Source: Alphaproteobacteria bacterium
Lineage (GTDB): Bacteria; Pseudomonadota; Alphaproteobacteria; GCA-2731375
Reading direction: 5' to 3'
DNA length: 64,000 nucleotides
Assembly: GCA_965225945.1 (NCBI GenBank)
Contig: CBDDBZ010000033.1
Location: 192,001 to 256,000 of the forward strand
The notes beneath the pieces were generated by a model, which made no database searches, was not told the DNA's origin, and was given only the letters and a program-made list of their open reading frames with translations. The translations under genes were made by a program, and so were the position numbers. This document shows, one piece after another, positions 2,969 to 64,000 of this stretch. How positions within the stretch are numbered: position 1 is the stretch's first letter; every line of letters begins with the position of its first letter.

Positions 2969-3723
2969 CTTGCCTATCCGGTTATCACCCACACCCACTA
3001 TATGTAGTGTGCACCCATTTTCCTGAGTAAAGCTCGGTGCAGGTCGAAGCGGAGATATCTCCGGCGATGCCGAGCAGGGACTCGGACGGCATTGTAGCGC
3101 CTTTTAGGCGACACTTTAGCGTGGTGGAAATCCTAATCATTGAGTCGGATTTGGCAAAACGCCACGTTGCATAAAGGACCGTCACTTCATTGAAATTTAT
3201 CTGAAATCGGAGGTGAACGACACCGATGGAATATTCCAGGAAATCAGAGCTTCATTGAATTGTAGGATTCGAGTGCCGGATTATTCACAAATAGCTCTGT
3301 GAACTGGTTTTCAAGTTCGCTCAATACGTCATATGAAGTAAACGGATTGAGGATCACGTTCTTGCGTGTCGCTTCGTCTTCGCTGCGACTCAAAACGCGC
3401 AGGAGACTAACAGGCGCGGACGGGTTCTTCGCAACGATTCGTGCCAGCGCGTCGCTTTCTTCGACTAGTGCCGTCAATCGCTCAGACGATGTCGTTTCAT
3501 CAGCAGCTTCCCGTCTGGCCGTGGGTTTCTTCGTTTTTCCCTTGGTCGCCACCGTTCCGTCCCCCGATGTTAAGTACGTGACGTGAATTAAACTCCGGTT
3601 CGGTTTTCAGAACAATCAAGAATTAGCCGGATCGCCTCCTCAATGCGCCTGCGCCGGCCCTTGCCTGCAGTCCAAGGAGACACACTACATATAGTGGGTG
3701 TGGGTGATAACCGGATAGGCAAG
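2969..3723 (-). mobile_element. 755-bp non-autonomous insertion cassette, copy 1
   Basis: 43-bp perfect TIR CTTGCCTATCCGGTTATCACCCACACCCACTATATGTAGTGTG; TSD TGTTCAGC at 2961-2968 and 3724-3731. Confidence 0.95.
3244..3552 (-). CDS. LRV/HEAT-like repeat passenger protein, 102 aa (copy 1)
   Basis: GTG start after G-rich RBS; repeats VAKNPSAP..LL..L, VILNPFTS..VL..L, FVNNPAL. Confidence 0.75.
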   Translation of the reverse strand: MATKGKTKKPTARREAADETTSSERLTALVEESDALARIVAKNPSAPVSLLRVLSRSEDEATRKNVILNPFTSYDVLSELENQFTELFVNNPALESYNSMKL

Positions 3724-3748
3724 TGTTCAGCTTCGCTAGACTTCGCCC

Positions 3749-5938: not shown

Positions 5939-7161
5939 CATGGTACACGACGGCATTTACGTAGGACGTTGAAAAGGTTGTAGGATTCCCGATTCACTCC
6001 ACGACGAGTCAAGAGGGAAATCATGCGAGACAACCCGATCAACGCCCTGCGTGAGACGCTACGATGCGGCTTCGCCTTTCGCAAGAGCCGTCTGGAGAGC
6101 CTTTGCGTCTTGGTCTTCGGCGTGTTCGTCGCCCGGACGGTGAACCTCTCTCACTTGGCCTGCCACTTTCCGGGGCGCGCGCGATCCAGCTCCAACTATC
6201 GGCGCCTGCAACGGTTTTTCGAGCAAGTCGATTTCGATTACGATCGCCTCGCCGAGTTCCTGGTCGCGATGATGGGGCTCCAGGCGGGGCCGTGGCGGCT
6301 GACCATGGACCGGACCAACTGGCGGCTGGGTCGCCGCGACGTCAACATCTTGATGATCGGCATCGTCAACCGCGCCATCGCCATTCCCGTGTGCTGGCGG
6401 GTGCTCGACAAGGCGGGCAATTCCAATACCAAGGAGCGGATCGCGATCCTCGAACACGTCCTCCGGCTCTTCGGGGTCGACAAGATCGCCAGCCTCCTGG
6501 CCGACCGGGAATTCATCGGCGACGCCTGGCTGGCATGGTTGCAGGAAAAGGCCATCCCCTTTCACATCCGCATCCGATCCAACATCAAGATCGCCAACAC
6601 GCGTGGTCGCATGGTCAAGGCGAGGGAGCTGTTTCGCGACCTCAAACCCGGGGAAAGCCGCATCCTCTCCAACGCCAGGCGCCTCTCGGAGGCCAGAAAA
6701 CCCAAGGCCAGGCCCGTCTTCGTCGCCGCGCTCCATCTCAAGACCGGCGAACTGTTGATCGTCGTGACCAACGACGCGCCCGAGGAGGCCTTGGCCATCT
6801 ACGCCCAGCGCTGGCAAATCGAGACCCTCTTCGCCGCCTTGAAAACCCGTGGCTTCAACCTCGAAGACACCCACATGACCGACCCGGAGCGCATCTCCAA
6901 GCTCACCGCCGTCCTTTCCATCACCTTCTGCTGGGCGCACAAAGTCGGCGATTGGCTCCACGAGGCCGAGCCGATCCGCCTCAAAACCCACAAAAGGATG
7001 GCAAAATCCATCTTCCGATACGGTTTCGAGTGGATAAGGCGACAGCTCGTCAATCCTATCGACAGGCGTCAAGCCATTGAGCTGATTCGTTTCCTCGTCC
7101 CCGGAAAACCACCAGTCCAGGTGCCCAGGCCAAAGCCAGCATGAACGAGTCGTGTACTGTG
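5939..7161 (+). mobile_element. Complete IS4-family element (transposase 6023-7144)
   Basis: DRTNW, ADREF and YAQRWQIETLF motifs; TIR CATGGTACACGAC / GTCGTGTACTGTG; 9-bp TSD ATCGGGGGT. Confidence 0.92.
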
Positions 7162-7321
7162 ATCGGGGGTATAGTCTCCGTCGGGCCGCGGTGGCCGATT
7201 CGGTCATTGATAGACCCTATGTCCGTTGAGGTTTCGACGCCGGGACCAGGTGTCCGCCTCAGCATGTAGTTTCGAGGGTTGCACGCGTTTACGTGCCTAC
7301 CCTCATACATGGGAGACGGAC

Positions 7322-7533
7322 ATGACGGACGATATCACCTTTGTTGGCTTGGATGTTTCGAAGGAGACGATTTCGGTCGGGATCGCGCCGGGTGATCCGC
7401 GAGAGGCGGTTCATTATTTCGGCACCATCGTGTACCGACCGACGGCGCTCTATTCGCTCTGCAAGAAGCTGTCGCGGGACGGCGCGCGTCTTCACTTCTG
7501 CTATGAGGCTGGCCCGTTCGGCTATTCCCTGCA
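7322..7533 (+). pseudogene. IS110-family transposase N-terminal fragment, cut by IS256
   Basis: FVGLDVSKETI...CYEAGPFGYSL (DEDD domain start). Confidence 0.85.
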
Positions 7534-8873
7534 GATTGAGCAACCTGATGTGTGGAAATTCGGAACGCCGTTGATCAGTCATCCTCTGCTTTCCAAGTGA
7601 TGTAGGGTTTTTCGGTGGTTTCCCATTTCTCGTCGATTTCGACGAGGATGGCGGTGACCAGACGTTCGAGCGAGGCCTCGTTGGGAAAGACCCTGACCTT
7701 TACGGTGCGGCGCTTGATCTCCTGCTGGATGGATCGCTCCATGGGGTTCGAGGTTCGCATGCGCTTTTGGTGGCGCTCGGGCAGGGCGAAGACGGCGAGG
7801 CCCTCGGGGATCGCCGTCTCCAGCCAATCGGCGAGCTTGGGGGCGCTATCGCGGTAGGCCGCCACCAGATGGCCCAGCTCGGCCTCGGCGGCCTTGCCGT
7901 CGGCGGCGTTCCAGACCCGGCGCAGCTCCTTGCCGATGGCCTTTCGGATGGCGAGGTTGGGGGCGTGATGGATGGCGTTTTGAGCCAGATGGTACTGACA
8001 GCGCTGCCAGACGGCGCCGCCGAGGACGGCCTTGCGCGCGGCGCCGAGGCCTGGATGATCATCGGAAACGATATAGGCGACACCGCGCATGCCACGGGCA
8101 ACCAGGGTCTCCAGGAAGGCGCGCCAGTGCACTTCGGCCTCGGAGAGCGCACAGGAAACACCGAGCACCCGGCGGCGCTGGTCGGGGCCGATGCCGATCA
8201 CCGAGAGCACGGCGGCGTCGCGCACCACGCCACCCTCTCGGACTTTCTCATAGCGCGCGTCGAGGAGCAGGTAGCGGATCTCGCCCAGCGGCCGGTTGCG
8301 CCAGGCATCCAGCTCCCCATCCAAGAGCTTGGCGGCGCGGCTGACCTGGCTCGACGACAGGCTCTCCAGGCCGAACTCGCGCATCACCGCCTCGGCGTCA
8401 CGGGTGGAGACGCCTTTGATATACATCTCCGCCACGGCCAGCATGACAGCGCGGCAGGAGCGCCGTCCGCGCTCCAGGGCTTGGGGGTAAAAAGGCGCCT
8501 CATGACCGGCGGTCTTGGGAACCTCGAGCCTCACCGTACCGGCCGGGGTGTCGATCTTCTTGGGTCTGGTGCCGTTGGCGTATCCCCGCCGCTCGGGCGT
8601 GCGCTCATAGTGGCCGGCGCCCAAGAACCTCTCCCGCTCGATCCGCATGGCGAGATTGAAAAGGCCGGCGAAGACCGTCGCCATGTTCTCGCTACCGCCT
8701 TCGATCAATTGTTCCATCAAAGCCTCGACAGCGCTATCCTAGTCTTTCCGCATACTGGTTCTCCATGTTTGTTTGGACGCTTTCACGGATAACCAAAATG
8801 ACCGATCGCCCCGCGCCGGGGTATACCCCGGCGCGGGGCGAAGCCAAATTTCCAGACCTCACGCTACACAAGC
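7534..8873 (-). mobile_element. IS256-family element (transposase 7575-8720)
   Basis: YLLLDARYEKVR, WQRCQYH and RTSNPMER motifs; imperfect ~27-bp TIRs; no TSD; upstream ATG at 8753 is followed by in-frame TAG. Confidence 0.9.
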
Positions 8874-9622
8874 CTCCTTTGCCGATGAGGACGGTCTGCA
8901 CCGCCGTCTTCATGTTGTCGTAGATGCCTCGCCGGCAGGCACCCTGGAACAGCCGGAATGCCCGGTCGTGGGCGTCGAACACCATCTCCTGGCTCTCGCG
9001 CGGATAAGCGCGGACGAAGAACATTCGGCTGTGGCACAGCCGGACGTGCGCGACCTTGACCTTGGTCGTCACCCCCGCCAGCACCACGTACTCGTGGCTC
9101 CAGTCGAACTGATAGGCCTCGCCCGGCGAGAACACCAACGGCACATAGGTCTGCGCCGTCGATGCCGAACGGCGCCACCGCCACGCCTTGGCGTAGCGCC
9201 GCACCGCGTCGTAGCCGCCGCCATAGCCCAGACCCTCGAGGGCTTCGGAGATCCGTAGCAGCGTCAGCCGCTCCCGCTTCGACTTGGTCTCGTTGGCCTC
9301 CAGCATCCGCTCCAGCTCGGCCGTCCACGGCCCCAGCTTCGGCATCGGCTGGACCCGCCGGTCGTAGGTGAACGCCGTCGCCTGCGAACGGATCACCTTG
9401 CGCACCGTGTTGCCCGAGACCTTCACGTCCCGCACGATCTCCTTGATCGGCTTCCCCTTGACAAAATACTCCCGCCGGATCCGCGCTATCGTCTCCACGA
9501 CCAACATCCCCCACCACCTCGTCCGCCCAAAAACGAGGTGACTTGGACTAGCCAGGCTCAGGGGGTCAAATTTGGACGCCGATCACCCCTCAACAGGGGT
9601 CAACTTTGCACGCCGTTCCACA
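8874..9622 (-). mobile_element. istA: Truncated IS21-family element (IstA N-terminal part, start 9507)
   Basis: PGEAYQFDWS and GIYDNMKTAV motifs; left end TGTGGAACGGCG with repeated AAA(G/T)TTGACCCC. Confidence 0.88.
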
Positions 9623-10595
9623 CCCAGAAGGAGATGCCCTGTTTGGCGCAGGTCTTCATGAGGCCGAGGAAGGCGTCGCGGGCCTCGCGGCCGGCCTCGG
9701 ATCGGGTGCCGCCGGAGATCTTGCGGCGGGTCACCTGGCAGCGGATGTCGTTCTCCGAGCCGTTGGTGTTGAGCGGCACCTCGGGGCGCTCGAGCACCAG
9801 CAGCAACTCTTCCTTGTTGCCATGGAGCCGGGCGAGCAGGCGATCGAGGGTGGCGAAGCCGGTGCGCCTGGTGAAGATATCGTCGAAGCGCCGGCGAAGC
9901 TCGCGTCTTCGTCGCCGGCGCGGGTCTTCGCGGTAGGCCTTGGGGTCCGCGTAGAGCCACCAGATCCGGGTCCGGATCCGTTCTTTCGCTTGCGCCTGCG
10001 CCTGAGTGAAACAATCCAGCTTATGGACCAAGCGCTCGGCGTGGACCCAGCAGAGCGCGTGATGGCCGACGTTGAACTGGCCGGCGTCGTCGCTGAGGAT
10101 GACGCTGTCTTTGAGCAGGCCGTGGTCAGTAAGGGAGCCCCAGAGCGCGCCCTCGGTGGCGATCTTGACCGGATCGGGCTGGACCTCGAGGTCCGTGATC
10201 CCCAAGGCCTTCAGGTGGCTCATCCAGATCCTCTCGTCGGCAAAGCGGCGCACCCGGGCCGTTTCCAAACGGGCGACGAGGGGGCCGGCGAGACGGCGTT
10301 CGCGCATGTAGGCCAAGGCCGCGTCATTGACCAGGTAGTCTTCGTGACCGGCCCGCAGCAGTTCCAGGAAGTTCCGCCGTCTCTTGGAAAAGCCGGTGGC
10401 GAACCAGGCGAAATGGTCGTTGCCGATCTGCGTGCACACGCCGTTGCGCGCCCGATGGCGGGCGCCGGTGTCGTCCACGCTGACCCAGGCCGCGGTCTCC
10501 AGGCCGGCGCGCAGAACCGCGCCCGCCTCGCCGGTGAAGCACGCCTGGTCCTCGTTCAGGAGCCGCATCACCTGGCGCTTGGAGATCGCCACCCC

Positions 10596-11350
10596 CTTGC
10601 CTATCCGGTTATCACCCACACCCACTATATGTAGTGTGTCTCCTTGGACTGCAGGCAAGGGCCGGCGCAGGCGCATTGAGGAGGCGATCCGGCTAATTCT
10701 TGATTGTTCTGAAAACCGAACCGGAGTTTAATTCACGTCACGTACTTAACATCGGGGGACGGAACGGTGGCGACCAAGGGAAAAACGAAGAAACCCACGG
10801 CCAGACGGGAAGCTGCTGATGAAACGACATCGTCTGAGCGATTGACGGCACTAGTCGAAGAAAGCGACGCGCTGGCACGAATCGTTGCGAAGAACCCGTC
10901 CGCGCCTGTTAGTCTCCTGCGCGTTTTGAGTCGCAGCGAAGACGAAGCGACACGCAAGAACGTGATCCTCAATCCGTTTACTTCATATGACGTATTGAGC
11001 GAACTTGAAAACCAGTTCACAGAGCTATTTGTGAATAATCCGGCACTCGAATCCTACAATTCAATGAAGCTCTGATTTCCTGGAATATTCCATCGGTGTC
11101 GTTCACCTCCGATTTCAGATAAATTTCAATGAAGTGACGGTCCTTTATGCAACGTGGCGTTTTGCCAAATCCGACTCAATGATTAGGATTTCCACCACGC
11201 TAAAGTGTCGCCTAAAAGGCGCTACAATGCCGTCCGAGTCCCTGCTCGGCATCGCCGGAGATATCTCCGCTTCGACCTGCACCGAGCTTTACTCAGGAAA
11301 ATGGGTGCACACTACATATAGTGGGTGTGGGTGATAACCGGATAGGCAAG
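10596..11350 (+). mobile_element. 755-bp insertion cassette, copy 2
   Basis: Same TIRs as copy 1; TSD GCCACCCC at 10588-10595 and 11351-11358; splits the IS66 transposase at DIGVA|ISKRQ. Confidence 0.95.
10767..11075 (+). CDS. LRV/HEAT-like passenger protein (copy 2)
   Basis: Translation identical to copy 1. Confidence 0.75.
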   Translation: MATKGKTKKPTARREAADETTSSERLTALVEESDALARIVAKNPSAPVSLLRVLSRSEDEATRKNVILNPFTSYDVLSELENQFTELFVNNPALESYNSMKL

Positions 11351-11886
11351 GCCACCCCGATATCGCTGAGCAAGGCCACCAGACGCGCCACCGTGGTCTG
11401 GCCCTGGTGGTAGAGGTCCACCACGAAGCGGCGCAACTCCGACCCGAAGTGGCCCTTCGCCCCCGCTGGCAAGGCCGCTATCACCGTCTCTCCCGACGGC
11501 GTCACCCAGCGTTGCCGGTGGTAGCGCAGGGTATATGGGCGCACCAAGAGATCTTGGACCACGTAGGGCTCGGTGCCCTTGAAGCGCGAGCCCGGCGGAA
11601 CCTCGGCCACAAGGATGCGCTCCTCGTCGATACGCAGCCGCGCGTTCTTCTTGCCCCGGCGGGCCTGTTGGCGCCGTTCCTTGGTCTTGCGTCGTTCGGC
11701 CGCCTTCTTCTCCATGCCGCTCGGCTTGATCTTGGGCCGCCCCTTGAGCCCTTTCAGCCGCGCGATCTCCTCGCGCAAGGCCGCGTTCTCCACTCGCAGA
11801 CGCGCGACCTCCTCCAATTGCCGGAGCACCAACCGCTTGAGGTCGTCCAGGCTCAGGGCCTCAATATCCGGGAGCGATTCGGCCAT

Positions 11887-13337
11887 GGGGATGTCCCGGG
11901 CTCTGTTGAAAAGCTGAAGTAGGCGTCGTCCGCCTGGAGCCGCTAGGCTCTGGGTGCTGATTCCATCAAGGAGAACGACGCCATGACCAAGACTACACGC
12001 AACGACCGTTCCTCGGAACCATCCTGTCGGCTCTTGCCATCGATGCCGGAGGCCTTCGACGATCTGCGCATGAGCGTCGATCGCTTCTGCCTTTTGGCGG
12101 GCCTCGAGTCTTTGAACGAGATGATGTCGGCGGACGCGGAAGCCTTGTGCGGTTCGCGCCACGCCCGCTCGGGCGAGCGCAAGGGCCATCGATGGGGCAC
12201 GACCCGGAGCGAGATCGCCTACCACGGCGGCAAAGTGAAGGTCGAGCGCCCTCGGGTGCGGGACTTCGCGGGTCGGGAGATGAGCCTGCCGAGTTGGGAG
12301 CTGCTGTCGGAACCCGAACTCTTGCAAGCCTGGGCGATGAATCTGATGGTGATCAACGTCTCGACCCGCAAGTATGCCCGCGCGGTGCGCCTGCCGGACG
12401 ATGCGGGCGGCGATCTGCCGGCGGCATCGGGTGACGCAACCTCGAAGTCGGCGGTCTCGCGCCGTTTCGTGGCGTTGACGCGAAGCAAGCTGAAGGCCTG
12501 GCTGGCGAGCCCGCTCGACGATCTCGATCTCGTGGTGCTCCAGATCGACGGGCTCCATGTCGGCGATCACCTGATGGTGGCGGCGATCGGCATCGACACC
12601 GGCGGCGCGAAGCACGTGCTGGGCCTGGCCGAGGGCGCGACGGAGAACGCGGCCACGGTGCAAGCCATGCTCGACAACCTGATCGAGCGCGGTCTCGATC
12701 CCGAACGGCCTCGGCTCTACATCGTCGACGGCGCCAAGGCGCTCTCGAAGGCGATCCGGCGGACCTTCGGGCGGGCGGCGGCCCTCCAGCGCTGCCAGGT
12801 GCACAAGGGGCGCAACATCACGGACCGGCTGGACGAGAGCCTCCATGCCGGCGTCAGGAAGGTCTTGCGGCAGGCCTGGCAGCAGGACGACGCGGCCAAG
12901 GCCGAACGGCTCTTGCGCAACCTCGCCCGCCGTCTGGAGCATGACGCACCCGGCGTCTCGGGCTCGATCCTGGAGGGCCTGGACGAGATCCTGACCGTGA
13001 TCCGGCTCGGCCTCCCGCCGCAACTTCGACACTCGCTGGCTTGCACCAACGCCATCGAGAACGCGATCGGCACCGTCCGGACGGTGCAGCGGAACGTCAA
13101 GCGCTGGCGCAACGCCGAGATGGCGCTGCGTTGGACCGCCGCCGGCCTCTTGGAGGCGCAAAAGACCTTCCGCCGCCTCAAGGCCTACCGCCAGCTCCCC
13201 GTCCTTGACGCCGCCCTGCGGGAGGCGGTGAGAAAGGCCGGAGCAAAGTCCGTCATTGAAGACATCGAGGTGGCCGCGTAGCCTCTCGATCAGACGATGC
13301 CTATCTCGCACTTTTCAACATTGGGCGGGACATCGCC
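11887..13337 (+). mobile_element. Complete IS256-family element (transposase 11983-13281)
   Basis: LQIDG, DGAKAL, QRCQVHK and TNAIE motifs; TIR GG(G/C)GATGTCCCG...TGTTGAAAAG; 9-bp TSD TTCGGCCAT. Confidence 0.93.
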
Positions 13338-13935: not shown

Positions 13936-14601
13936 CCAGCCGCACCTCGATGGCAAAACCATCCTCGGTCCAGATCAATGACCAATCTCGAAGATGGTCA
14001 AGTCCGGATTCTGCTGGGAATTTTCTCCGGGGTTGCCTCCGTCGAGGCCTGTTCTGGTAGTTCCAGCTCGGCTTGGTATTCCTGATCGAGTTCCTTCCTG
14101 ACGGCGTCCATCTGGCGCCGCTCGAAGACGGTGACCTTGACTGCTTTCCATCGCTCGGCGGCGCGGCTCATGGCACCGAACATGAGCTTCAGTACCGCCT
14201 TTTCGCCGAAGGCGTTGGGGATGATCTTCAAGCGCCGGCGCTCCTCCCCGAACAATCTCTCCAGCAGGTTGGTGGTGCGGATCGCCCGGCGGTGATTGAC
14301 CGGCATGCGCAGGTGCGCGATGCAGGCCTCGAAATCATCCAGGAAACAGGCCACCGCCGAGGGCAGCTCGCGCTCCCAGTCACGCACCACGCCCTCGGCC
14401 AGATCGCGGGCGATGGCGCGCGAGGGGGCCTGGTAGGCCGCTTGGGCGCGGGCCTTGAACTCCGGCCAGAGATCCTCGGGCACCTTCGCCGCCAAGTTCC
14501 TCATCCGGTGCGCGAGGCAGCGTTGGCGCGCGCTCCTGGGAAAACAAATGGGGATTATGAATGCTACTTGACGCCCTGCGGGAAATCCGCATGATGGACG
14601 G

Positions 14602-14994
14602 ATGTTTGGAACCGAGGCATCCCTCCCCATTACGGTCAAAGAGGTGGGGGCGGTCGTGAGGCGCTTCTTATTAATGCTCCGCCTGCATCGGTGTCCGTGT
14701 TTCGATCGCACTCTCTTTTGGACGTTCTCATGGAAACTAGCGGATATATTTCGAGTTCTCGAAAGTCCTGACGTCTCTCCTGACGGATTTACGCATAATC
14801 ACTACTTGGCAAAACGAGACGTGGAACGCATCACAGGAACGTTTAACATTGACTGTCCTGAAATAGACGCCGACACGGTAAGGATTTGGCTTCACTATAT
14901 GGCGCTGCTGATTGATTCATGTAAAGACGGCAATCTGAAGGTGGCGAGGAATATTATGAGAGATCCCAATCTGAGATTCAGATCAGATGACTAG
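14602..14994 (+). CDS. Hypothetical passenger protein in IS1595
   Basis: AT-richer ORF inside the TIRs; no recognisable motif. Confidence 0.4.
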   Translation: MFGTEASLPITVKEVGAVVRRFLLMLRLHRCPCFDRTLFWTFSWKLADIFRVLESPDVSPDGFTHNHYLAKRDVERITGTFNIDCPEIDADTVRIWLHYMALLIDSCKDGNLKVARNIMRDPNLRFRSDD

Positions 14995-15262
14995 ACCCAA
15001 CTTCGCCAGCGGCCCAGAGCACGGGCAACAAGACGATGGCCGAATGGAGGGCCGCACAATGACCCGAGGCGTCCCTGTTCTCGACCCGGCGGTGCACCTG
15101 AAGGGTGCGACCCCGGAGAAACTGGCGAAGGCGCTCTTTCGCCGAACCGAGCCGCTACCGCCCCGCGTTGGAAAGCCCGTTGCTGGCGACGAGGTCGCGG
15201 TAGAGAAGGTTTCGACCGACGAGCCGGGCAACAGTGTCCCGCATTTGGGCAAGAGTGCCTGA
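14987..15262 (+). CDS. Small hypothetical passenger protein in IS1595
   Basis: GATPEKLAKALFR; converges on and overlaps the transposase 3' end; start uncertain. Confidence 0.4.
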   Translation: MTRPNFASGPEHGQQDDGRMEGRTMTRGVPVLDPAVHLKGATPEKLAKALFRRTEPLPPRVGKPVAGDEVAVEKVSTDEPGNSVPHLGKSA

Positions 15263-17175
15263 GTCGCGGATGTTGTGCTTGCCAGCGAACTCCTGGACGT
15301 AACGGTCAAGATGCTTCGGACTGATCTTGTGGAAGGTTCCTTTGTGGGCGCGCTTGAGCATGCTCCAGAAGCTTTCAATACCGTTGGTATGCGCCATGCC
15401 GTCAACGTACTCGCCAACGCTGTGTTTGACGGTTTCGTGGTCGAAAGTCAGCCCCTTATAGGAGCCATGATCGTCCGTGTAGACCTTGGCATCGGACGCG
15501 GCGTGATCCGCGACGAACCCCTGCAATGTCTGGCCATCTGTGTCGTCAACGACACGGGCCGTCACTTTGTTGCTGTCGCGGTCTTTCATACCAACAACGG
15601 CGGTCTTGCCAACTGCACTACGTCCGGTGCCCGCCAACTCTTTGCGCTTGGCCTTGCTCATGTTCTTGCGCTTGCCGCCAAAGTAAGTTTCGTCTACCTC
15701 GACCGGGCCGTCGAAAGGTTCGCCGTTCTCGCCCGCCCACGCTTCACGGATACGGTGCAACATGAACCAAGCTGTAGGCTGGGATACGCCGATATCGCGG
15801 GACAGTTTCATGCTGGCGACGCTTTTAAGGCTGGTAAGGCACAAGTAGATGGCGATGGCCCACTTGCGAAGCGGGACGTTGGAGCGGGCAATCGGCGTTC
15901 CGGTGCGGACGCTGAAATACGACCGGCAGTCAGAGCACCAATAGGGCATCGGTTTGGCGTTCGGGACTTCGCGCGTCCGAACGCTCCCGCACTTGCCGCA
16001 ATGCCGCTCGCCGTCACGCCAGATAACGGACTCGAACCATGCCGTCGCGGCAGCCTCATCCAGGAACATGTCCATGAGCTGGACCAGCGTAACGCCTTCG
16101 CGATGGGCTTTGCCTGGGGCTTTCTGCGTCATGTCCGTGTCTCCCTTCCAACACCTTGGAATATAGGGAGTCAGTCAGCTAATGTCAAGTAGTCTTTATA
16201 ATCCCCTTTCGAACTCGCTAAGGTCGCGCTTGGCGAAGCCGAGGTAGTCCGCCCAGAGCCGCTCCCCCATCTCCGAGACCGCCGTGCGCGACAGCAGCAA
16301 GCGCCCACTTTCTTCCCTGAAGGCATCTTCGATGTCGCGCACCGAGAGACCGCGCGCCAGCATCTCCACGGCTAAATCCTCCAGGCCCTCGGAATGACCC
16401 TTCAGCTGCGCTCGCAGATCCGAACGGAACGGTTCGTCCGTCCCGGCGACCTGCGGCGCCGCATACCTGATCCGCCCCTCGGCCGTCTTCAGATGACCTT
16501 CGCGCGAACCGTTCCGGTAACCTCGGCCAGGCTCGGAACCGTGCTCGTAATAGTCCCGGCCCAGGGCGTCGCGCACCTCGGCCTCCAAGCCTTCCTCGAT
16601 GATCAACCGCGTCGCCAACCGCACCAATTCACTCTTCGCGTCGACCACGCGGGCGCGCCCTTCGATCAGGTCGTTCAAGGCTTCACGCGTGCGCTCGCTT
16701 CCGGGTAGTCTCTTCGTCATGGAGGTGCCTCCTGTGCTGGGCTGGCGCGCAGCCATGCCCGGGTGGGAATCGACACCTCGAAGGATGCACCTCCTACCAA
16801 ATTCCCAGCAAGTCTAGGACTTCACCGTCGAAGATGCCACGGTGCCCGTGCGCTAAATGACGATAGACCGGACACCACACGCTAGGTTCGTATATCCTTA
16901 CCGAATGGCGTGTAGATAAACCTCTGTTTTGAAACGGGTTTTGACCCCTGGTTACATACCACCGTTTTTGACCGCCCAATTTTTGCTCACTCCCGGCGTC
17001 AAGGACGGCCGTGGACAGATCTTCGCGGTCGTCGAGGTGGCGAATTGCACCTCGTGCCGTCCGGGATGGCGACGAGACGAGATCACCGCGATAGTGCCGC
17101 CGCGCCTCAAAATCACCAAAGAAGAAAAGCGCCGGGCGAACGAACGACACCAAAACTAGTCACGTTCGATCCCGC

Positions 17176-18126
17176 CTAAGCCTCCACCCGAGCCCGCACC
17201 TCGGTTTTGAACCAGTCCATCACCTCGTACGACTCCTCAACGCTGCCTCGGACCAGGTTGACGATCATGGTGGTGACGCCGGCCTCCCCCAGCGCGCGAA
17301 TGTCGCCGGCGATCTCGTCCGCCGTGCCGGTGAGGATGAAGCGCTCGCCACCCTCCAGCGCGAAAGGTGGTGCGTCGAACGGCCAGTTGGCGCAGTAGCT
17401 GCGCGTGATCGTCGCCGGATCGCGTCCGGCCTTCTCGGCCGCCGCCTCCAGCCGCCCGACCCGGGCGGTGTATTGCGGAAGCGTCGCGCACGGGAACCTG
17501 GGATTGGCGCCGATCGGGTACCAGCCATCGCCCAGTTCCGCCGTCCGCCGGAGCGCCCTCGGGCTTTCGCCGCCGATCCAGATCGGAATGGTGCCCTGGG
17601 CCGGCTTGGGCTCGAAGACGATGTCGGCATAGGCGCCGTAGGCGCCGTCGTGACTCGGCGTGTCATCCTGCCAGAGGCTGCGGAAGATCCGGATGTATTC
17701 GTCGGTGACGTCGCCACGGGCCTCGAACGGCGGTGCGCCCAGGGCCTCGAACTCTTCCTTCATCCAGCCGGCGCCGCAGCCGAGCGTCACTCGCCCCTCC
17801 GAGAGGTGATCGATGGTGGCGAGGATCTTGGCGGTGTGGACGGGTGCGCGGTGCGGCACCACCATCACCGAAGTGAGGAGCCGCACCCGTGTCGTCACCG
17901 CCGCGAGCCAGGCGAGCGCCGTCGGCTGGTCGAGCCAGAGGTCGGGAAAGGTCGGCTTGCCGTCGGCGGCATAGGGGTAGACGTGGGCGAAGGACTTGGG
18001 GATCACGATATGGTCCGAGACGGTGAGGTATTCGTAGCCCATCTCCTCGCCCTTGCGCGCGAGCGCCTTGAGCTCCCGCTGGGTGGCCATCGGCCCCCGG
18101 GTCGGCATGCCGAAACCAAATTCCAT
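17176..18126 (-). CDS. LLM-class (putative F420-dependent) oxidoreductase
   Basis: SDHIVIP, LATIDHLSEGR.TLG.GAGW and IWIGG motifs. Confidence 0.9.
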   Translation of the reverse strand: MEFGFGMPTRGPMATQRELKALARKGEEMGYEYLTVSDHIVIPKSFAHVYPYAADGKPTFPDLWLDQPTALAWLAAVTTRVRLLTSVMVVPHRAPVHTAKILATIDHLSEGRVTLGCGAGWMKEEFEALGAPPFEARGDVTDEYIRIFRSLWQDDTPSHDGAYGAYADIVFEPKPAQGTIPIWIGGESPRALRRTAELGDGWYPIGANPRFPCATLPQYTARVGRLEAAAEKAGRDPATITRSYCANWPFDAPPFALEGGERFILTGTADEIAGDIRALGEAGVTTMIVNLVRGSVEESYEVMDWFKTEVRARVEA

Positions 18127-18153: not shown

Positions 18154-19110
18154 TCAGGCGCCGACGCGGGGGCGGATCTCCGCCGCGAAACGGCTGATCT
18201 CGTCGAGCGTGGCTTGAAGCGTCGGGTGCTGGAAATTGAACAGCGCCCGGGTGACACCGAGGGCGGCGAGGGCGGAAATATCCTCGGCGATTGCCGCCAC
18301 TTCACCGGTGAAGAGGTGGCGCTCGCCGGCTTCCAGCGCCAGCGGCGGCTCGGTGAACAGCCAATTGGCCCAATAGGCGAGCTCGATCGTCGCCGGATCG
18401 CGCCCCTCCTCGTCGGCGAGCCCGTGCAGCCGCGCCACCCGCTTCTCGTAACGATGAAGCGTGTTCAAGGGAAAGCGCGGGTTGGTGCCGACCGGGAACC
18501 AGCAATCGCCGAGCCGGGCGGTGCGGCGCAGCGCGGCTGCGCTCTCGCCGCCGATCCAGAACGGCACCCGCGCCTGCGCCGGCTTGGGCTCGAAGACGAG
18601 ATTGGCGACCTGCGCAAATTCACCGTCGTATTCCGGCGCCTCCTGTTCCCAAAGCGCGCGGAAGGCCATCAGATACTCGTCGGTGACCCGGCCGCGGGCA
18701 TCGAAATCCGGTGCGCCGATGGCCTCGAACTCCTCCCGCATCCAGCCGGCGCCACAGCCGAGCACCAGGCGCCCGCCCGACAGCACGTCGATCGTGGCCA
18801 GGATCTTGGCGGTGTGCACGGGCGCGCGATGCGGCACCACCATGACGGACGTCAAAAGCTTGACCGTGCGTGTCGCGCTTGCGAGCCAGGCCATCAGGGT
18901 CAGTTGCTCGAGGCAGGCGCCGATCGCCCGGCCGGCCCAGCTGCCGTCGCTCGAATAAGGATAGGTCGAGGCGACCTCGCGCGGGACGACGATGTGGTCG
19001 GGAATGGCGATATATTCGAAACCCAGCGCCTCGCCGTGACGCGCGATCGCCAGGATCGAATCCGGATCCGCGAGCGGTCCCCGCGTCGGAATGCTGAAGC
19101 CGTACTCCAT
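18154..19110 (-). CDS. LLM-class (putative F420-dependent) oxidoreductase, tandem paralog
   Basis: Same motifs; shares LLTSVMVVPHRAPVHTAKILATID with its neighbour. Confidence 0.9.
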   Translation of the reverse strand: MEYGFSIPTRGPLADPDSILAIARHGEALGFEYIAIPDHIVVPREVASTYPYSSDGSWAGRAIGACLEQLTLMAWLASATRTVKLLTSVMVVPHRAPVHTAKILATIDVLSGGRLVLGCGAGWMREEFEAIGAPDFDARGRVTDEYLMAFRALWEQEAPEYDGEFAQVANLVFEPKPAQARVPFWIGGESAAALRRTARLGDCWFPVGTNPRFPLNTLHRYEKRVARLHGLADEEGRDPATIELAYWANWLFTEPPLALEAGERHLFTGEVAAIAEDISALAALGVTRALFNFQHPTLQATLDEISRFAAEIRPRVGA

Positions 19111-31795: not shown

Positions 31796-32078
31796 ACGCG
31801 GCCGAGATCACGGGCGACGGCGGCCCCGCGCGCCTGCCCCAGAGGCCGATTTGCCGCCATCAAACGCTTTCCTATGCTCGGATCATGCTCTAGGTTGGCG
31901 GGCGGGAGTGCGACTTGGTCGAGCGCCTGTCCGCCCGGCCCGGCGTCGCCTTTCCGATCGCGGGCTTCGGCGCCAGCGATTGCCGGCGCTGTCCGGCGCA
32001 TCTGTTGCGTCTTCCCTCCGGCTGGACGCTCGCGTGGATGCTCGCCGGGCTCGAGCGATCCGCCACGAACTCGCCGCC

Positions 32079-32573
32079 TCAGCGCGTCAGGTCGATGGAG
32101 GGCGCCGGACCCGGCCTTTCGATCCGGTACACGGTCTCGCCCCGGTCCGTCCACACCTCGACCCGCCGGGGTTTGCTGGGGCCGCGAGACGCGGGACGTT
32201 CGCTCCCAGGCCCACGTCGCTCCCCGCCATTCGGGCGAGATGATGCATGGGACGACCGGTGCTCGACGCGGGAGCCCCAATCGTTGGAGTCGTGGCGTCG
32301 ACGATTTCCGTTCCCATGGTGGTCGTCGCGAGAGCGTCGATGGCCTCGGTGTCCCCGATGTTCGCGCTCTCGATCATCGAGGTCGAACCCAGCGGTACTA
32401 TCGTAACCCAGGAGGTAGAAGATCGGACTGGCACTGAAAAAGCCGTCGAGGCCGGCGCAGACCGGATGCTCACAGGAGCCGTTCTCGTCGTGGATTCTGT
32501 TGCCGGCGTGGCAACCCGCCAGCACGAGGGTAGCGAGAAATATGAGGGGCGTGACGACACGCGGCTTGACCAT
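32079..32573 (-). CDS. Hypothetical lipoprotein, His/Arg-rich
   Basis: RBS AAGGAG; lipobox LAGC; ends PSIDLTR. Confidence 0.7.
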   Translation of the reverse strand: MVKPRVVTPLIFLATLVLAGCHAGNRIHDENGSCEHPVCAGLDGFFSASPIFYLLGYDSTAGFDLDDREREHRGHRGHRRSRDDHHGNGNRRRHDSNDWGSRVEHRSSHASSRPNGGERRGPGSERPASRGPSKPRRVEVWTDRGETVYRIERPGPAPSIDLTR

Positions 32574-32685
32574 GGAATTCTCCTTCCGGCGCGCTGCGTC
32601 GGGCGACCTCGGTTCGCCGTCGTCGAGCGACGACTCGAAACGACCCTCCCGCTCGCCGAGCCCCGAGCCGAGCGGCACCACCCCC

Positions 32686-33251
32686 TCAGCGCGTCAGGTC
32701 GATGTTGGGGCCCGTAGCCGGGCTCTGGAACCGGTAGCGAGGCTTCCGCCGGTCTTTCCGCACCTCTACCCGCCGTGGTTCCGGCGCCACGCGGGCCTCG
32801 CGACGTTGCGCGCGCGACGGTCGGGCGACACATGGGACCTTCGGCGCTCGACCCGGCTCCGCCAAACCTCGGAGCGGGAGCGATGGCGACGCGAGACGCC
32901 ATGGCGGTTGCCACCGTGGCGGCCCTGGAAGTGGGGTTGACGGTGGAACGTGCCACCGTGCCAATGACCGCTGAACCGCCGGCGCGGCCGATGGCCCCAA
33001 CGATGAGGGCGATGATGGCGCTGCACGCGATGTGGCCGCCGGAGACCGGTATCGCCGAAGAAGGGGCGAGGATGGCGATACACGTGATGCGGCCGCCGGA
33101 GGCCGCTATTGCGGAAGAAGATGCAGAGCGGCCGATCGCAGAACGCCACCCCGCCACGGTAGCCCCGGCCACCGTGGCCGCCATCGGCGAGCGCCGGCGT
33201 CGCCAGCAAGGCGAAGAGCGCGAGAATGAGCGGTTTGTAGAACGATTTCAT
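32686..33251 (-). pseudogene. Secreted His/Arg-rich protein, frameshifted before the PRRVEV...IDLTR tail
   Basis: Signal peptide ending ALA-D; the tail lies in another frame, with a (CG)n run at about 32808-32816. Confidence 0.6.
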
Positions 33252-60380: not shown

Positions 60381-60629
60381 CGCGAGAAGAGACATATCAA
60401 GCGGATAACTGGCGCGGCTCTCATGTAGCGCGTCGTGATCGTGATCTCAATGGGGGTGCGAAACATGATTAGAGAGTCCGGCTTTCTTTCGTTCAACACG
60501 ATCCGGGCAAAGTTTCTCGCGAGAAGAGACATATCAAGCGGATAACTGGCGCGGCTCTCATGTAGCGCGTCGTGATCGTGATCTCAATGGGGGTGCGAAA
60601 CATGATTAGAGAGTCCGGCTTTCTTTCGT
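60381..60629. repeat. 112-bp direct duplication (period 137)
   Basis: 60381-60492 equals 60518-60629; spans the RBS and ATG of the kinase gene. Confidence 0.9.
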
Positions 60630-60802
60630 CATCCCGCTTGTGTTGCTTTCGACGATCGCCGTCTTCGGGCTGTTCGAGTTCGATGCCCGCCGGGACGCAA
60701 ACCGCATGCTTCAGGACAAGCTCGACAAGCTGGTCGCCATCCAGAGCGCGGTGGTCGCCAAATCGCTGTGGAACGTCGCCGACGAGCAGATCAAGTTGAT
60801 TC

Positions 60803-61557
60803 CTTGCCTATCCGGTTATCACCCACACCCACTATATGTAGTGTGCACCCATTTTCCTGAGTAAAGCTCGGTGCAGGTCGAAGCGGAGATATCTCCGGCG
60901 ATGCCGAGCAGGGACTCGGACGGCATTGTAGCGCCTTTTAGGCGACACTTTAGCGTGGTGGAAATCCTAATCATTGAGTCGGATTTGGCAAAACGCCACG
61001 TTGCATAAAGGACCGTCACTTCATTGAAATTTATCTGAAATCGGAGGTGAACGACACCGATGGAATATTCCAGGAAATCAGAGCTTCATTGAATTGTAGG
61101 ATTCGAGTGCCGGATTATTCACAAATAGCTCTGTGAACTGGTTTTCAAGTTCGCTCAATACGTCATATGAAGTAAACGGATTGAGGATCACGTTCTTGCG
61201 TGTCGCTTCGTCTTCGCTGCGACTCAAAACGCGCAGGAGACTAACAGGCGCGGACGGGTTCTTCGCAACGATTCGTGCCAGCGCGTCGCTTTCTTCGACT
61301 AGTGCCGTCAATCGCTCAGACGATGTCGTTTCATCAGCAGCTTCCCGTCTGGCCGTGGGTTTCTTCGTTTTTCCCTTGGTCGCCACCGTTCCGTCCCCCG
61401 ATGTTAAGTACGTGACGTGAATTAAACTCCGGTTCGGTTTTCAGAACAATCAAGAATTAGCCGGATCGCCTCCTCAATGCGCCTGCGCCGGCCCTTGCCT
61501 GCAGTCCAAGGAGACACACTACATATAGTGGGTGTGGGTGATAACCGGATAGGCAAG
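60803..61557 (-). mobile_element. 755-bp insertion cassette, copy 3 (passenger ORF 61078-61386)
   Basis: Same TIRs and ORF; left flank GTTGATTC. Confidence 0.95.
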
Positions 61558-61867
61558 GCTTCAACCTCGAAGACACCCACATGACCGACCCGGAGCGCAT
61601 CTCCAAGCTCACCGCCGTCCTTTCCATCACCTTCTGCTGGGCGCACAAAGTCGGCGATTGGCTCCACGAGGCCGAGCCGATCCGCCTCAAAACCCACAAA
61701 AGGATGGCAAAATCCATCTTCCGATACGGTTTCGAGTGGATAAGGCGACAGCTCGTCAATCCTATCGACAGGCGTCAAGCCATTGAGCTGATTCGTTTCC
61801 TCGTCCCCGGAAAACCACCAGTCCAGGTGCCCAGGCCAAAGCCAGCATGAACGAGTCGTGTACTGTG
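61558..61867 (+). mobile_element. 3' 310-bp fragment of the IS4 element
   Basis: Matches 6852-7161, including the right TIR. Confidence 0.9.
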
Positions 61868-61911
61868 CAATCTGACATTAAGTGCACTGTCACCTAATGC
61901 TGTCGATCACC

Positions 61912-61958
61912 GATTGAGCAACCTGATGTGTGGAAATTCGGAACGCCGTTGATCAGTC
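61912..61958 (-). mobile_element. 47-bp terminal fragment of the IS256 element
   Basis: Matches 7534-7580. Confidence 0.85.
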
Positions 61959-62713
61959 CTTGCCTATCCGGTTATCACCCACACCCACTATATGTAGTGT
62001 GTCTCCTTGGACTGCAGGCAAGGGCCGGCGCAGGCGCATTGAGGAGGCGATCCGGCTAATTCTTGATTGTTCTGAAAACCGAACCGGAGTTTAATTCACG
62101 TCACGTACTTAACATCGGGGGACGGAACGGTGGCGACCAAGGGAAAAACGAAGAAACCCACGGCCAGACGGGAAGCTGCTGATGAAACGACATCGTCTGA
62201 GCGATTGACGGCACTAGTCGAAGAAAGCGACGCGCTGGCACGAATCGTTGCGAAGAACCCGTCCGCGCCTGTTAGTCTCCTGCGCGTTTTGAGTCGCAGC
62301 GAAGACGAAGCGACACGCAAGAACGTGATCCTCAATCCGTTTACTTCATATGACGTATTGAGCGAACTTGAAAACCAGTTCACAGAGCTATTTGTGAATA
62401 ATCCGGCACTCGAATCCTACAATTCAATGAAGCTCTGATTTCCTGGAATATTCCATCGGTGTCGTTCACCTCCGATTTCAGATAAATTTCAATGAAGTGA
62501 CGGTCCTTTATGCAACGTGGCGTTTTGCCAAATCCGACTCAATGATTAGGATTTCCACCACGCTAAAGTGTCGCCTAAAAGGCGCTACAATGCCGTCCGA
62601 GTCCCTGCTCGGCATCGCCGGAGATATCTCCGCTTCGACCTGCACCGAGCTTTACTCAGGAAAATGGGTGCACACTACATATAGTGGGTGTGGGTGATAA
62701 CCGGATAGGTAAG
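61959..62713 (+). mobile_element. 755-bp insertion cassette, copy 4 (passenger ORF 62130-62438)
   Basis: Same element; one TIR mismatch (T at 62710); right flank GTTGATTC. Confidence 0.95.
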
Positions 62714-64000
62714 GTTGATTCTCGCCGCGCTGGCCATCGATCCCGACGTCGAGAGCGCCGCCGTATACGACGAGCGGGACCAGCTCGTCGGCTTTACCGG
62801 ATCGGCCGATGAGATCGAGACACGGCCGTTCTTCGCGTCGAAAGAGATCGTCTACGTCTATGACGAGAAGCCCGAGGTCATCGGCCGGCTGACGGTTGCC
62901 TTGACCGACGCGCGTCTGCAATCCGCCGCACGGGAGCGCATGTTCCTGGCCGGCGTTTTGGCGGCCATTCTCATCGTCTCGGTCGTGTTCAGCGCGTTGC
63001 TCGGCAACCGTCGCACGATCGGCATCCCGCTCGAGCGGCTGCTCGCCTCGATCGACCGTTCGCGCGAGGGCGGCAAACGCCAAGCCGTCGATTGGCGGAG
63101 CAACGACGAGATCGGCGCCGTGGTCTCGGCGTTCAACGAGATGCAGGAACGCCAAAAGGCTTACGAGCAGGATCTCGAGGCAACGCGCGACATGCTCGAG
63201 CGCCGCGTCGAGGAGCGCACCCGCGAGCTCGCCCATCTCGCCCGGTTCCCGTCCGAGGACCCGAGCCCGGTGCTCAGGGTGATGCCCGACGGCGCCGTGC
63301 TCTACGCCAACGATGCCGCGATTGCGGTCAATGGGCTGCTCGAGGGAGGCAGGAAGTCGACGCTCCCGCGCGACCTCGCCGGGGTTTGTGCCGAGGCGTC
63401 TCGCACCGCCGAGGTCCGGGAGAGCGAGTTCGAAAGCGGCGATTGCGTCTTCGCCTTGTCGATCGCACCGGTCGCCGACGAGTCCTACATCAATATTTAC
63501 GGCCGCGACATCACCGAACGCAAACGGGCGGAAGCGGACCTGTCCGAGAAGGAAGCCCAACTCCGTCTGACGCTGAACCGTATGCCCGGCGGCATAAGGC
63601 TTGTCGATAAGGACAGAAATTACGTATTATTCAACTCGCGATACTCCGAATTGTACGATTTTCCCGAAGGACTTCTCAAAGTCGGCGATTCCAGCCGTGT
63701 CGAGAATCTTTACCAGGCCCGACGCGGCGACTTCGGCGACGGCGATCCGGAGACGCTGGTCGATGAATGGCGAAACGAAATTCCGGTGCAAACCGAACCC
63801 GCGAGTTGGGAACGAAGAACGGTTGGCGGGAAAACGCTTCGGGTCCGCACGGCACCAACGCCGGATGGCGGTTTCGTGAATATTGTTACCGACATCACCG
63901 CGCACAAGCGCGCCGAGGAAGCGTCGCGCGAGGCGCGCGACTCCGCCGAATTGGCGACGCAGGCCAAGGCGGCGTTCCTCGCCACAATGAGCCATGAGAT

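Follow-up and report, generated by a model that had tools for sequence, protein, structure and literature searches.

How could a small mobile cassette that encodes no transposase come, in two copies, to bracket unrelated DNA inside a gene, with a single target duplication around the whole? The question is raised by a 64,000-nucleotide stretch of alphaproteobacterial DNA (lineage GCA-2731375; assembly GCA_965225945.1, contig CBDDBZ010000033.1, positions 192,001 to 256,000 of the forward strand), referred to here as the window and numbered from its first letter. Near its right end a unit of 1,911 bp, composed of two inverted cassette copies (c3 and c4) and the cargo enclosed by them, interrupts a gene for a predicted sensor protein. 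The unit has the features by which a composite transposon is recognized: two copies bracket unrelated DNA, the duplication lies around the whole, and excision restores the target. It was probably generated by one transposition event, in which a transposase acting in trans used the two outer cassette ends. The borders of the unit and the interrupted gene are defined by the following features:

60465-60802, + strand: 5′ part of the sensor gene, holding a frameshifting 103-bp ectopic duplication (60522-60624)
60795-60802, no strand: left outer duplication, 8 bp, GTTGATTC
60803-61557, + strand: cassette copy c3, 755 bp, end bearing a transposase relic directed outward
61959-62713, - strand: cassette copy c4, inverted relative to c3, relic-bearing end outward
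62714-62721, no strand: right outer duplication, 8 bp, GTTGATTC
62714-64000, + strand: 3′ part of the sensor gene, with a PAS_7 domain; continues past the window end

Copy c3 is flanked by GTTGATTC on its outer side and by GCTTCAAC on its inner side, and copy c4 by GATCAGTC on the inner side and GTTGATTC on the outer side. Since these flanks differ, neither copy has a duplication of its own, and the 8-bp direct repeat GTTGATTC surrounds the whole c3-cargo-c4 unit only. A sequence-only reading of this DNA had proposed exactly this arrangement, i.e. inverted copies lacking individual duplications and a shared repeat at 60795-60802 and 62714-62721, and the flanks are as it claimed. For one given pair of flanks, a match at eight of eight positions is expected by chance once in 65,536.

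The interrupted gene provides the second line of evidence. In silico deletion of 60803-62721 yields a stop-free frame reading ...WNVADEQIKLILAALAIDPDVES..., and the sequence restored by excision of the unit together with one repeat, ...DEQIKLILAALAID..., is found letter for letter in three of four intact full-length homologues, which were identified by searching with the 3′ piece of the gene (DEQIKLILAALAIDPD exactly in P0124, P0141 and P0144; DGQIKLVLAALAIDPD in P0125). The 5′ piece aligns at residues 25-78 and the 3′ piece from residue 77 in all four of them, and the two-residue overlap, LI, is encoded by the duplicated GTTGATTC. Because the two gene pieces abut in the homologues, the 1,911-bp unit together with one copy of the 8-bp repeat represents a single precise insertion.

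The restored frame had previously been described as that of a kinase. Its openness is borne out by the match to the homologues, while the designation “kinase” finds no counterpart within the window, as the frame leaves it at position 64000, ahead of any output domain. The homologues end in different output modules: HisKA/HATPase (P0125 and P0144), guanylate cyclase (P0124) and a PP2C-type phosphatase (P0141). The interrupted gene is likely to encode a kinase.

The same gene carries a second lesion (window 60381-60629). A copy of 60385-60487, comprising the upstream region, seven complete codons from the gene start and a portion of the eighth, has been inserted at 60522-60624, after codon 19, and shifts the frame; this 103-bp duplication is bounded by the microhomologies CGCG and TTCGT. 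With both the composite and the 103-bp duplication removed, 504 open codons are obtained, aligning from residue 1 of the homologues.

The cassette is present in four copies in the 64-kb window. Two of them are simple insertions, and every copy contains one open reading frame (ORF):

2969-3723, + strand: cassette copy c1, simple insertion, flanked by the 8-bp duplication TGTTCAGC (2961-2968 and 3724-3731)
10596-11350, - strand: cassette copy c2, simple insertion, flanked by the 8-bp duplication GCCACCCC (10588-10595 and 11351-11358)
3244-3552, - strand: LRV_2-domain ORF of c1, 102 amino acids (aa)
10767-11075, + strand: LRV_2-domain ORF of c2, 102 aa
61078-61386, - strand: LRV_2-domain ORF of c3, 102 aa, passenger gene
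62130-62438, + strand: LRV_2-domain ORF of c4, 102 aa

Copies c1, c2 and c3 show no differences, and c4 deviates from them by a single base in 755: its outer terminal repeat reads CTTACC in place of CTTGCC, the changed base being number 4 of the repeat (window 62710). This private substitution indicates that c4 is not merely repeat sequence used a second time. The terminal inverted repeats are perfect over 43 bp and start with CTTGCCTATCCGG, so either end of a cassette should be able to serve outward. When the window was scanned for this motif with up to 3 mismatches, the eight ends of c1-c4 were the only matches, none being expected by chance. The cassette has a G+C content of 51%, compared with 64.6% for the window. 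Four near-identical copies with fresh duplications point to recent cassette movement.

To which family do these ends belong? Public genomes were scanned for exact matches to a 24-nt piece of the terminal repeat, which returned at least nine loci, the source genome not being among them. One of these loci (L004) contains a 1,080-bp element with cassette-type ends, encoding a protein of 341 aa in which the domains Zn_ribbon_IS1595 and DDE_Tnp_IS1595 are recognized. This protein scores 202.6 bits on profile NF033547 (cutoff 75) and is 95% identical to the annotated transposase of ISAcr1 (8 plasmid records). All three ISAcr1 copies inspected are 1,080 bp long, start with CTTGCCTATCCGGTTG and are flanked by 8-bp duplications (ATATATTG, GAATCAGC and GAACGTTC). 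The cassette shares the ISAcr1-like terminal repeats, and 8-bp duplications surround c1, c2 and the composite. It encodes no IS1595-family DDE transposase: positions 20-115 hold a relic of 32 codons, the product of which matches the C-terminus of the transposase at 66% identity (E 1e-10) and corresponds to its last 32 codons only. Since just this relic is present and LRV_2 is the sole Pfam match, the cassette is a non-autonomous derivative and not an insertion sequence (IS), in agreement with the earlier description of a cassette without a transposase. Mobile insertion cassettes, as defined in PMC3281130 and PMC3129680, consist of IS-type inverted repeats around at least one passenger gene, with the transposase absent, and this is the organization found here. 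On sequence criteria the element is thus classed as a non-autonomous, ISAcr1-like mobile insertion cassette of the IS1595 family.

The public loci also contain further derivatives that share these terminal repeats. Repeat-only miniature elements of approximately 110-145 bp occur in L003 (1724-1868) and L007 (2302-2411), and L005 (4023-5050) contains a cassette variant of approximately 1,028 bp, in which an extra insert of approximately 257 bp splits the LRV ORF. No matching 8-bp flanks were found at the boundaries assumed for these three derivatives.

The passenger ORF matches LRV_2 in Pfam at 34.1 bits (cutoff 27). Its homologues form 234 protein clusters, roughly 74-99% identical to it and mostly of exactly 102 aa. 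Among the 120 clusters listed of these 234, 92 lie on contigs of at most 3.2 kb, mostly 0.5-3 kb. An alignment of 14 sequences (the window ORF and 13 sampled homologues) has 102 columns, 34 of them invariant, and a single one-residue gap. The number of clusters and the conservation among the 14 sequences argue that the LRV gene is maintained and that the cassette is widespread and, it appears, multicopy. No solved structure was significantly related to the LRV protein by sequence (best E 0.91), and no known RNA family was detected within the unit at E ≤ 0.1. Literature searches in which LRV and ISAcr1 were not among the search terms returned no account of an LRV-carrying cassette of the IS1595 type and none of a composite formed by it. 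It is a distinctly doubtful proposition that this is an undescribed, widespread ISAcr1-derived cassette whose LRV protein aids its spread, e.g. by binding or modulating the borrowed transposase. If that were true, cassette pairs would constitute a general device by which environmental Alphaproteobacteria have chromosomal DNA captured, with the window's unit as a freshly caught instance.

The cargo can be traced to two ISs, intact copies of which are present elsewhere in the window:

61558-61867, + strand: first part of the cargo, the final 310 bp of an IS4-family element, matching window 6852-7161 at 100%
61868-61911, no strand: second part of the cargo, a unique spacer, 44 bp long or, with G 61912 included, 45 bp
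61912-61958, - strand: third part of the cargo, an end of an IS256-family element, 46-47 bp
5939-7161, + strand: intact IS4-family reference element, 1,223 bp, 9-bp duplication ATCGGGGGT; uninterrupted at GCTTCAAC (6852-6859)
7534-8864, - strand: IS256-family reference element, uninterrupted at GATCAGTC (7573-7580); right boundary approximate

The third part (61913-61958) equals window 7535-7580 at 100%, and the preceding G (61912) is common to both. The reference elements score 264 bits on NF033591 (cutoff 152; IS4 family) and 305 bits on NF033543 (cutoff 150; IS256 family). The whole cargo, 61558-61958, amounts to 401 bp, and its earlier dissection into an IS4 end, a 44-bp spacer and an IS256 end agrees with these perfect matches to the window copies. 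The spacer (44-45 bp) has no second occurrence in the window. The 100% identity to resident IS copies argues that the cargo is of recent origin in this genome and, as it consists of IS debris only and contains no gene, it carries no phenotypic payload.

The first and the last eight bases of the cargo, GCTTCAAC (61558-61565) and GATCAGTC (61951-61958), are presumably the leftovers of the duplications that the first and the second cassette, respectively, had generated in an earlier location. Both are complete 8-mers that open with G and close with C. The same form is seen in four of the six confirmed 8-bp duplications of the cassette and ISAcr1, and also at several one-sided flanks in the public loci (set L001-L012). 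G and C at these positions may reflect a weak target preference, and their occurrence in the inner flanks hints, if weakly, that the two 8-mers could be genuine former target sites.

The following course of events can be proposed. At a donor locus outside the window, one cassette would have resided in an IS4-family element at GCTTCAAC and a second one, 401 bp away, in a nearby IS256-family element at GATCAGTC. The cognate IS1595-family transposase would have come from an autonomous element located in another part of the genome and, instead of both ends of one cassette, it would have paired the two outer ends. Transfer of the resulting 1,911-bp unit into the sensor gene, in a reaction that may have been of the cut-and-paste or the copy-and-paste type, would then have produced the one 8-bp duplication, GTTGATTC. 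The idea that two cassettes moved together by means of their outer ends had already been put forward from the sequence alone, and it fits both the 8-bp duplication around the whole unit and the restored target.

Several points weigh against this course of events. The join of c3, cargo and c4 is known from the assembled sequence alone. The donor has a prerequisite that looks improbable, namely that two cassettes inserted independently no more than 401 bp from each other, unless a high copy number or local hopping eased it. A donor within the window was considered and rejected: the IS4 and IS256 copies found there are intact and separated by 373 bp instead of 44 bp, and the spacer occurs in the cargo only. 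None of the nine listed public loci has the flanks of the window unit or its cargo. Finally, no transposase matching the cassette ends is encoded in the window.

Because the window copies of the two ISs are uninterrupted and 373 bp apart, the donor would have to be a different locus, with other copies of both. The plasmid collection queried with the whole unit gave no match. An IS4 transposase cut at GCTTCAAC and continued by a cassette-encoded tail was not seen in any of eight near-identical partial hits among the 120 listed, although a tailed protein could be hidden within a 90% cluster. A search for further composites found paired terminal repeats in L003, L005, L007 and L009, without matching 8-bp flanks.

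The window does contain a distant IS1595-family element (15155-16189), with a 325-aa transposase (gene at 15155-16132) that is 30% identical to the ISAcr1-like one. Approximately half of the first 24 positions of its end match the cassette end, as judged by eye. One end could be placed at 16189 (CTTGACATTAGC...); a matching second end was not found in the window, and downstream of the transposase gene there is a low-G+C stretch (about 14700-15150). This element is an unlikely helper, given the 30% transposase identity and the different ends. As the only IS1595-family transposase of the window is diverged and the ends of its element differ, the helper would have to lie elsewhere in the genome.

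How else could the unit have arisen? A variant of the proposed course of events would regard the 1,911-bp unit as a composite already established in multiple copies after several moves, in which case the copy in the sensor gene would not derive directly from the primary IS4/IS256 locus. Nothing speaks for it directly, although the cassette family is abundant, as judged from the 234 clusters of its ORF. Neither the cargo nor the spacer recurs in the window, no cargo match was found in the nine listed loci, and the 100% identity of the cargo to resident IS copies speaks for a recent origin in this genome; this variant is unlikely.

Could the unit be an artefact of assembly? There would then be one true cassette in the sensor gene, and a wrong path would have been taken through the shared 755-bp repeat, the real cassettes within the IS4 and IS256 copies being situated elsewhere in the genome. 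The unit does consist almost entirely of repeats, the cassette being present four times and the IS4 and IS256 pieces twice in the window. Moreover, the cassette reaches the contig end in four of the nine listed loci (L001, L002, L006 and L008), and this run-off indicates that it breaks short-read assemblies. Restoration of the frame and of the 8-bp repeat does not discriminate here, since it is also expected of a true single cassette. Against a misassembly, four 755-bp copies and a 1.2-kb IS are contiguous in the window, which suggests reads longer than these repeats, and c4 carries its private substitution. We consider this explanation, including the placement of the real cassettes elsewhere, very unlikely.

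Homologous recombination offers another route. A single cassette would have made the GTTGATTC duplication and would later have been converted by a cassette-401 bp-cassette pair located elsewhere, one of the two crossovers falling inside the 43-bp terminal repeat and the other in the body of the cassette. As the repeats are perfect over 43 bp, a single cassette and an inverted second copy have the same right end, and copies that are 99.9-100% identical would provide ample homology. This route still requires the same donor pair, however, and confines one crossover to 43 bp; an allele with a single cassette is not known, and the route is less parsimonious than the use of outer ends, which is documented for such elements. 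Recombination is therefore judged highly improbable. Inverted duplicate copies are the expected product of replicative intramolecular transposition, yet the in situ formation of a second, inverted copy from a single resident cassette has virtually nothing to recommend it, as this reaction would invert the intervening chromosomal segment and split the original duplication between the copies, while the gene halves are uninverted, the outer repeat is direct and the inner 401 bp come from other ISs.

Several further features were distinguished in the window. Region 3.7-16.8 kb (approximate borders) is a dense nest of ISs that includes the IS4-family (5939-7161) and IS256-family (7534-8864) elements and the following:

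about 7171-7534: IS110-like 5′ fragment, recognized by eye from its translated N-terminus; no Pfam or NCBIfam match
8734-9507: IS21-family fragment
9600-10676: C-terminal fragment of an IS66-family transposase, immediately left of c2
11983-13281: second IS256-family gene
13998-14711 and 16196-16756: Mutator-type fragments, either side of the IS1595-family gene

Outside this nest two pairs of diverged direct repeats (76% identity) were observed. The first (17645-17881 and 18623-18859) is located inside two tandem genes encoding luciferase-like monooxygenases, which are paralogues, and the second (32074-32173 and 32681-32780) in a region without a Pfam match.

How does the unit compare with known systems? 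Composites bounded by non-autonomous elements are already documented, so the type of event is known. A transposase-less cassette with a passenger gene also has a precedent in MIC231 of Bacillus cereus, reportedly described by De Palmenaer et al. in 2004, in which IS ends are said to surround a passenger gene without a transposase, mobility depending on the cognate IS. The ends of MIC231 are reportedly of the IS4 family (IS231), and its passenger gene is said to be other than LRV. In comparison with MIC231, the case described here adds the paired, composite arrangement.

A known autonomous relative is ISAcr1 of Acidiphilium (NC_009468.1, NC_015181.1 and CP084173.1). The first 15 terminal bases, CTTGCCTATCCGGTT, are common to ISAcr1 and the cassette, and both generate 8-bp duplications. 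In ISAcr1 the 3′ end of the transposase gene enters the terminal repeat, and the cassette retains a relic of that end. ISAcr1 is an autonomous element of 1,080 bp with an annotated transposase gene of 338 codons, whereas the cassette has 755 bp and the LRV ORF; unlike in ISAcr1, both ends of the cassette are perfect copies of one repeat.

The sequence-only reading had concluded that elements without a transposase can mobilize arbitrary DNA. This is right, and it is not new, experimental evidence for it being reported for the TIME-COMP units (PMC4133298; see also PMC13367494). TIME-COMP1 and TIME-COMP2 are described in PMC4133298 as trap-plasmid captures bounded by two non-autonomous elements, inverted or direct, with one target duplication around the whole and the transposase provided in trans. 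The likeness extends to detail, since the inverted copies flanking TIME-COMP1 are reported to differ by one nucleotide, as do c3 and c4 (PMC4133298). The TIME elements themselves belong to the Tn3 family and are characterized in the same source by a length of 262 bp, the lack of an ORF, 5-bp duplications and mobility observed with trap plasmids (PMC4133298), whereas the element in the window is of the IS1595 family, 755 bp long, has a passenger ORF and 8-bp duplications, and is known from sequence evidence only.

A similar organization is described for class 1 integrons of Acinetobacter flanked by MITEs (miniature inverted-repeat transposable elements), with identical miniature elements at both ends (Zong 2014, PMC3934969). 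As in the unit reported here, mobilization into an ORF was deduced from the sequence context (PMC3934969). The MITEs are given there as 439 bp long and devoid of an ORF, with a resistance integron as the cargo (PMC3934969), whereas the cargo between c3 and c4 is 401 bp of geneless IS debris. Within the IS1595 family, ISApl4 is reported to be flanked by 8-bp direct repeats (PMC12561309), and two ISApl4 copies bound the mobile segment of the pseudo-compound transposon Tn7560 (PMC12561309), as the pair of IS1595-family elements does in the window. The ISApl4 copies of Tn7560 are described as encoding their own transposase, and its cargo consists of resistance genes (PMC12561309).

Set beside these systems, the unit appears to be a natural record of a pair of transposase-less IS1595-family cassettes moving the DNA between them and, in this case, disrupting a sensor gene. 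It would extend a mechanism known from Tn3-derived and other miniature elements to a gene-carrying cassette of the IS1595 type, and its value lies in providing an example of how such composites arise.

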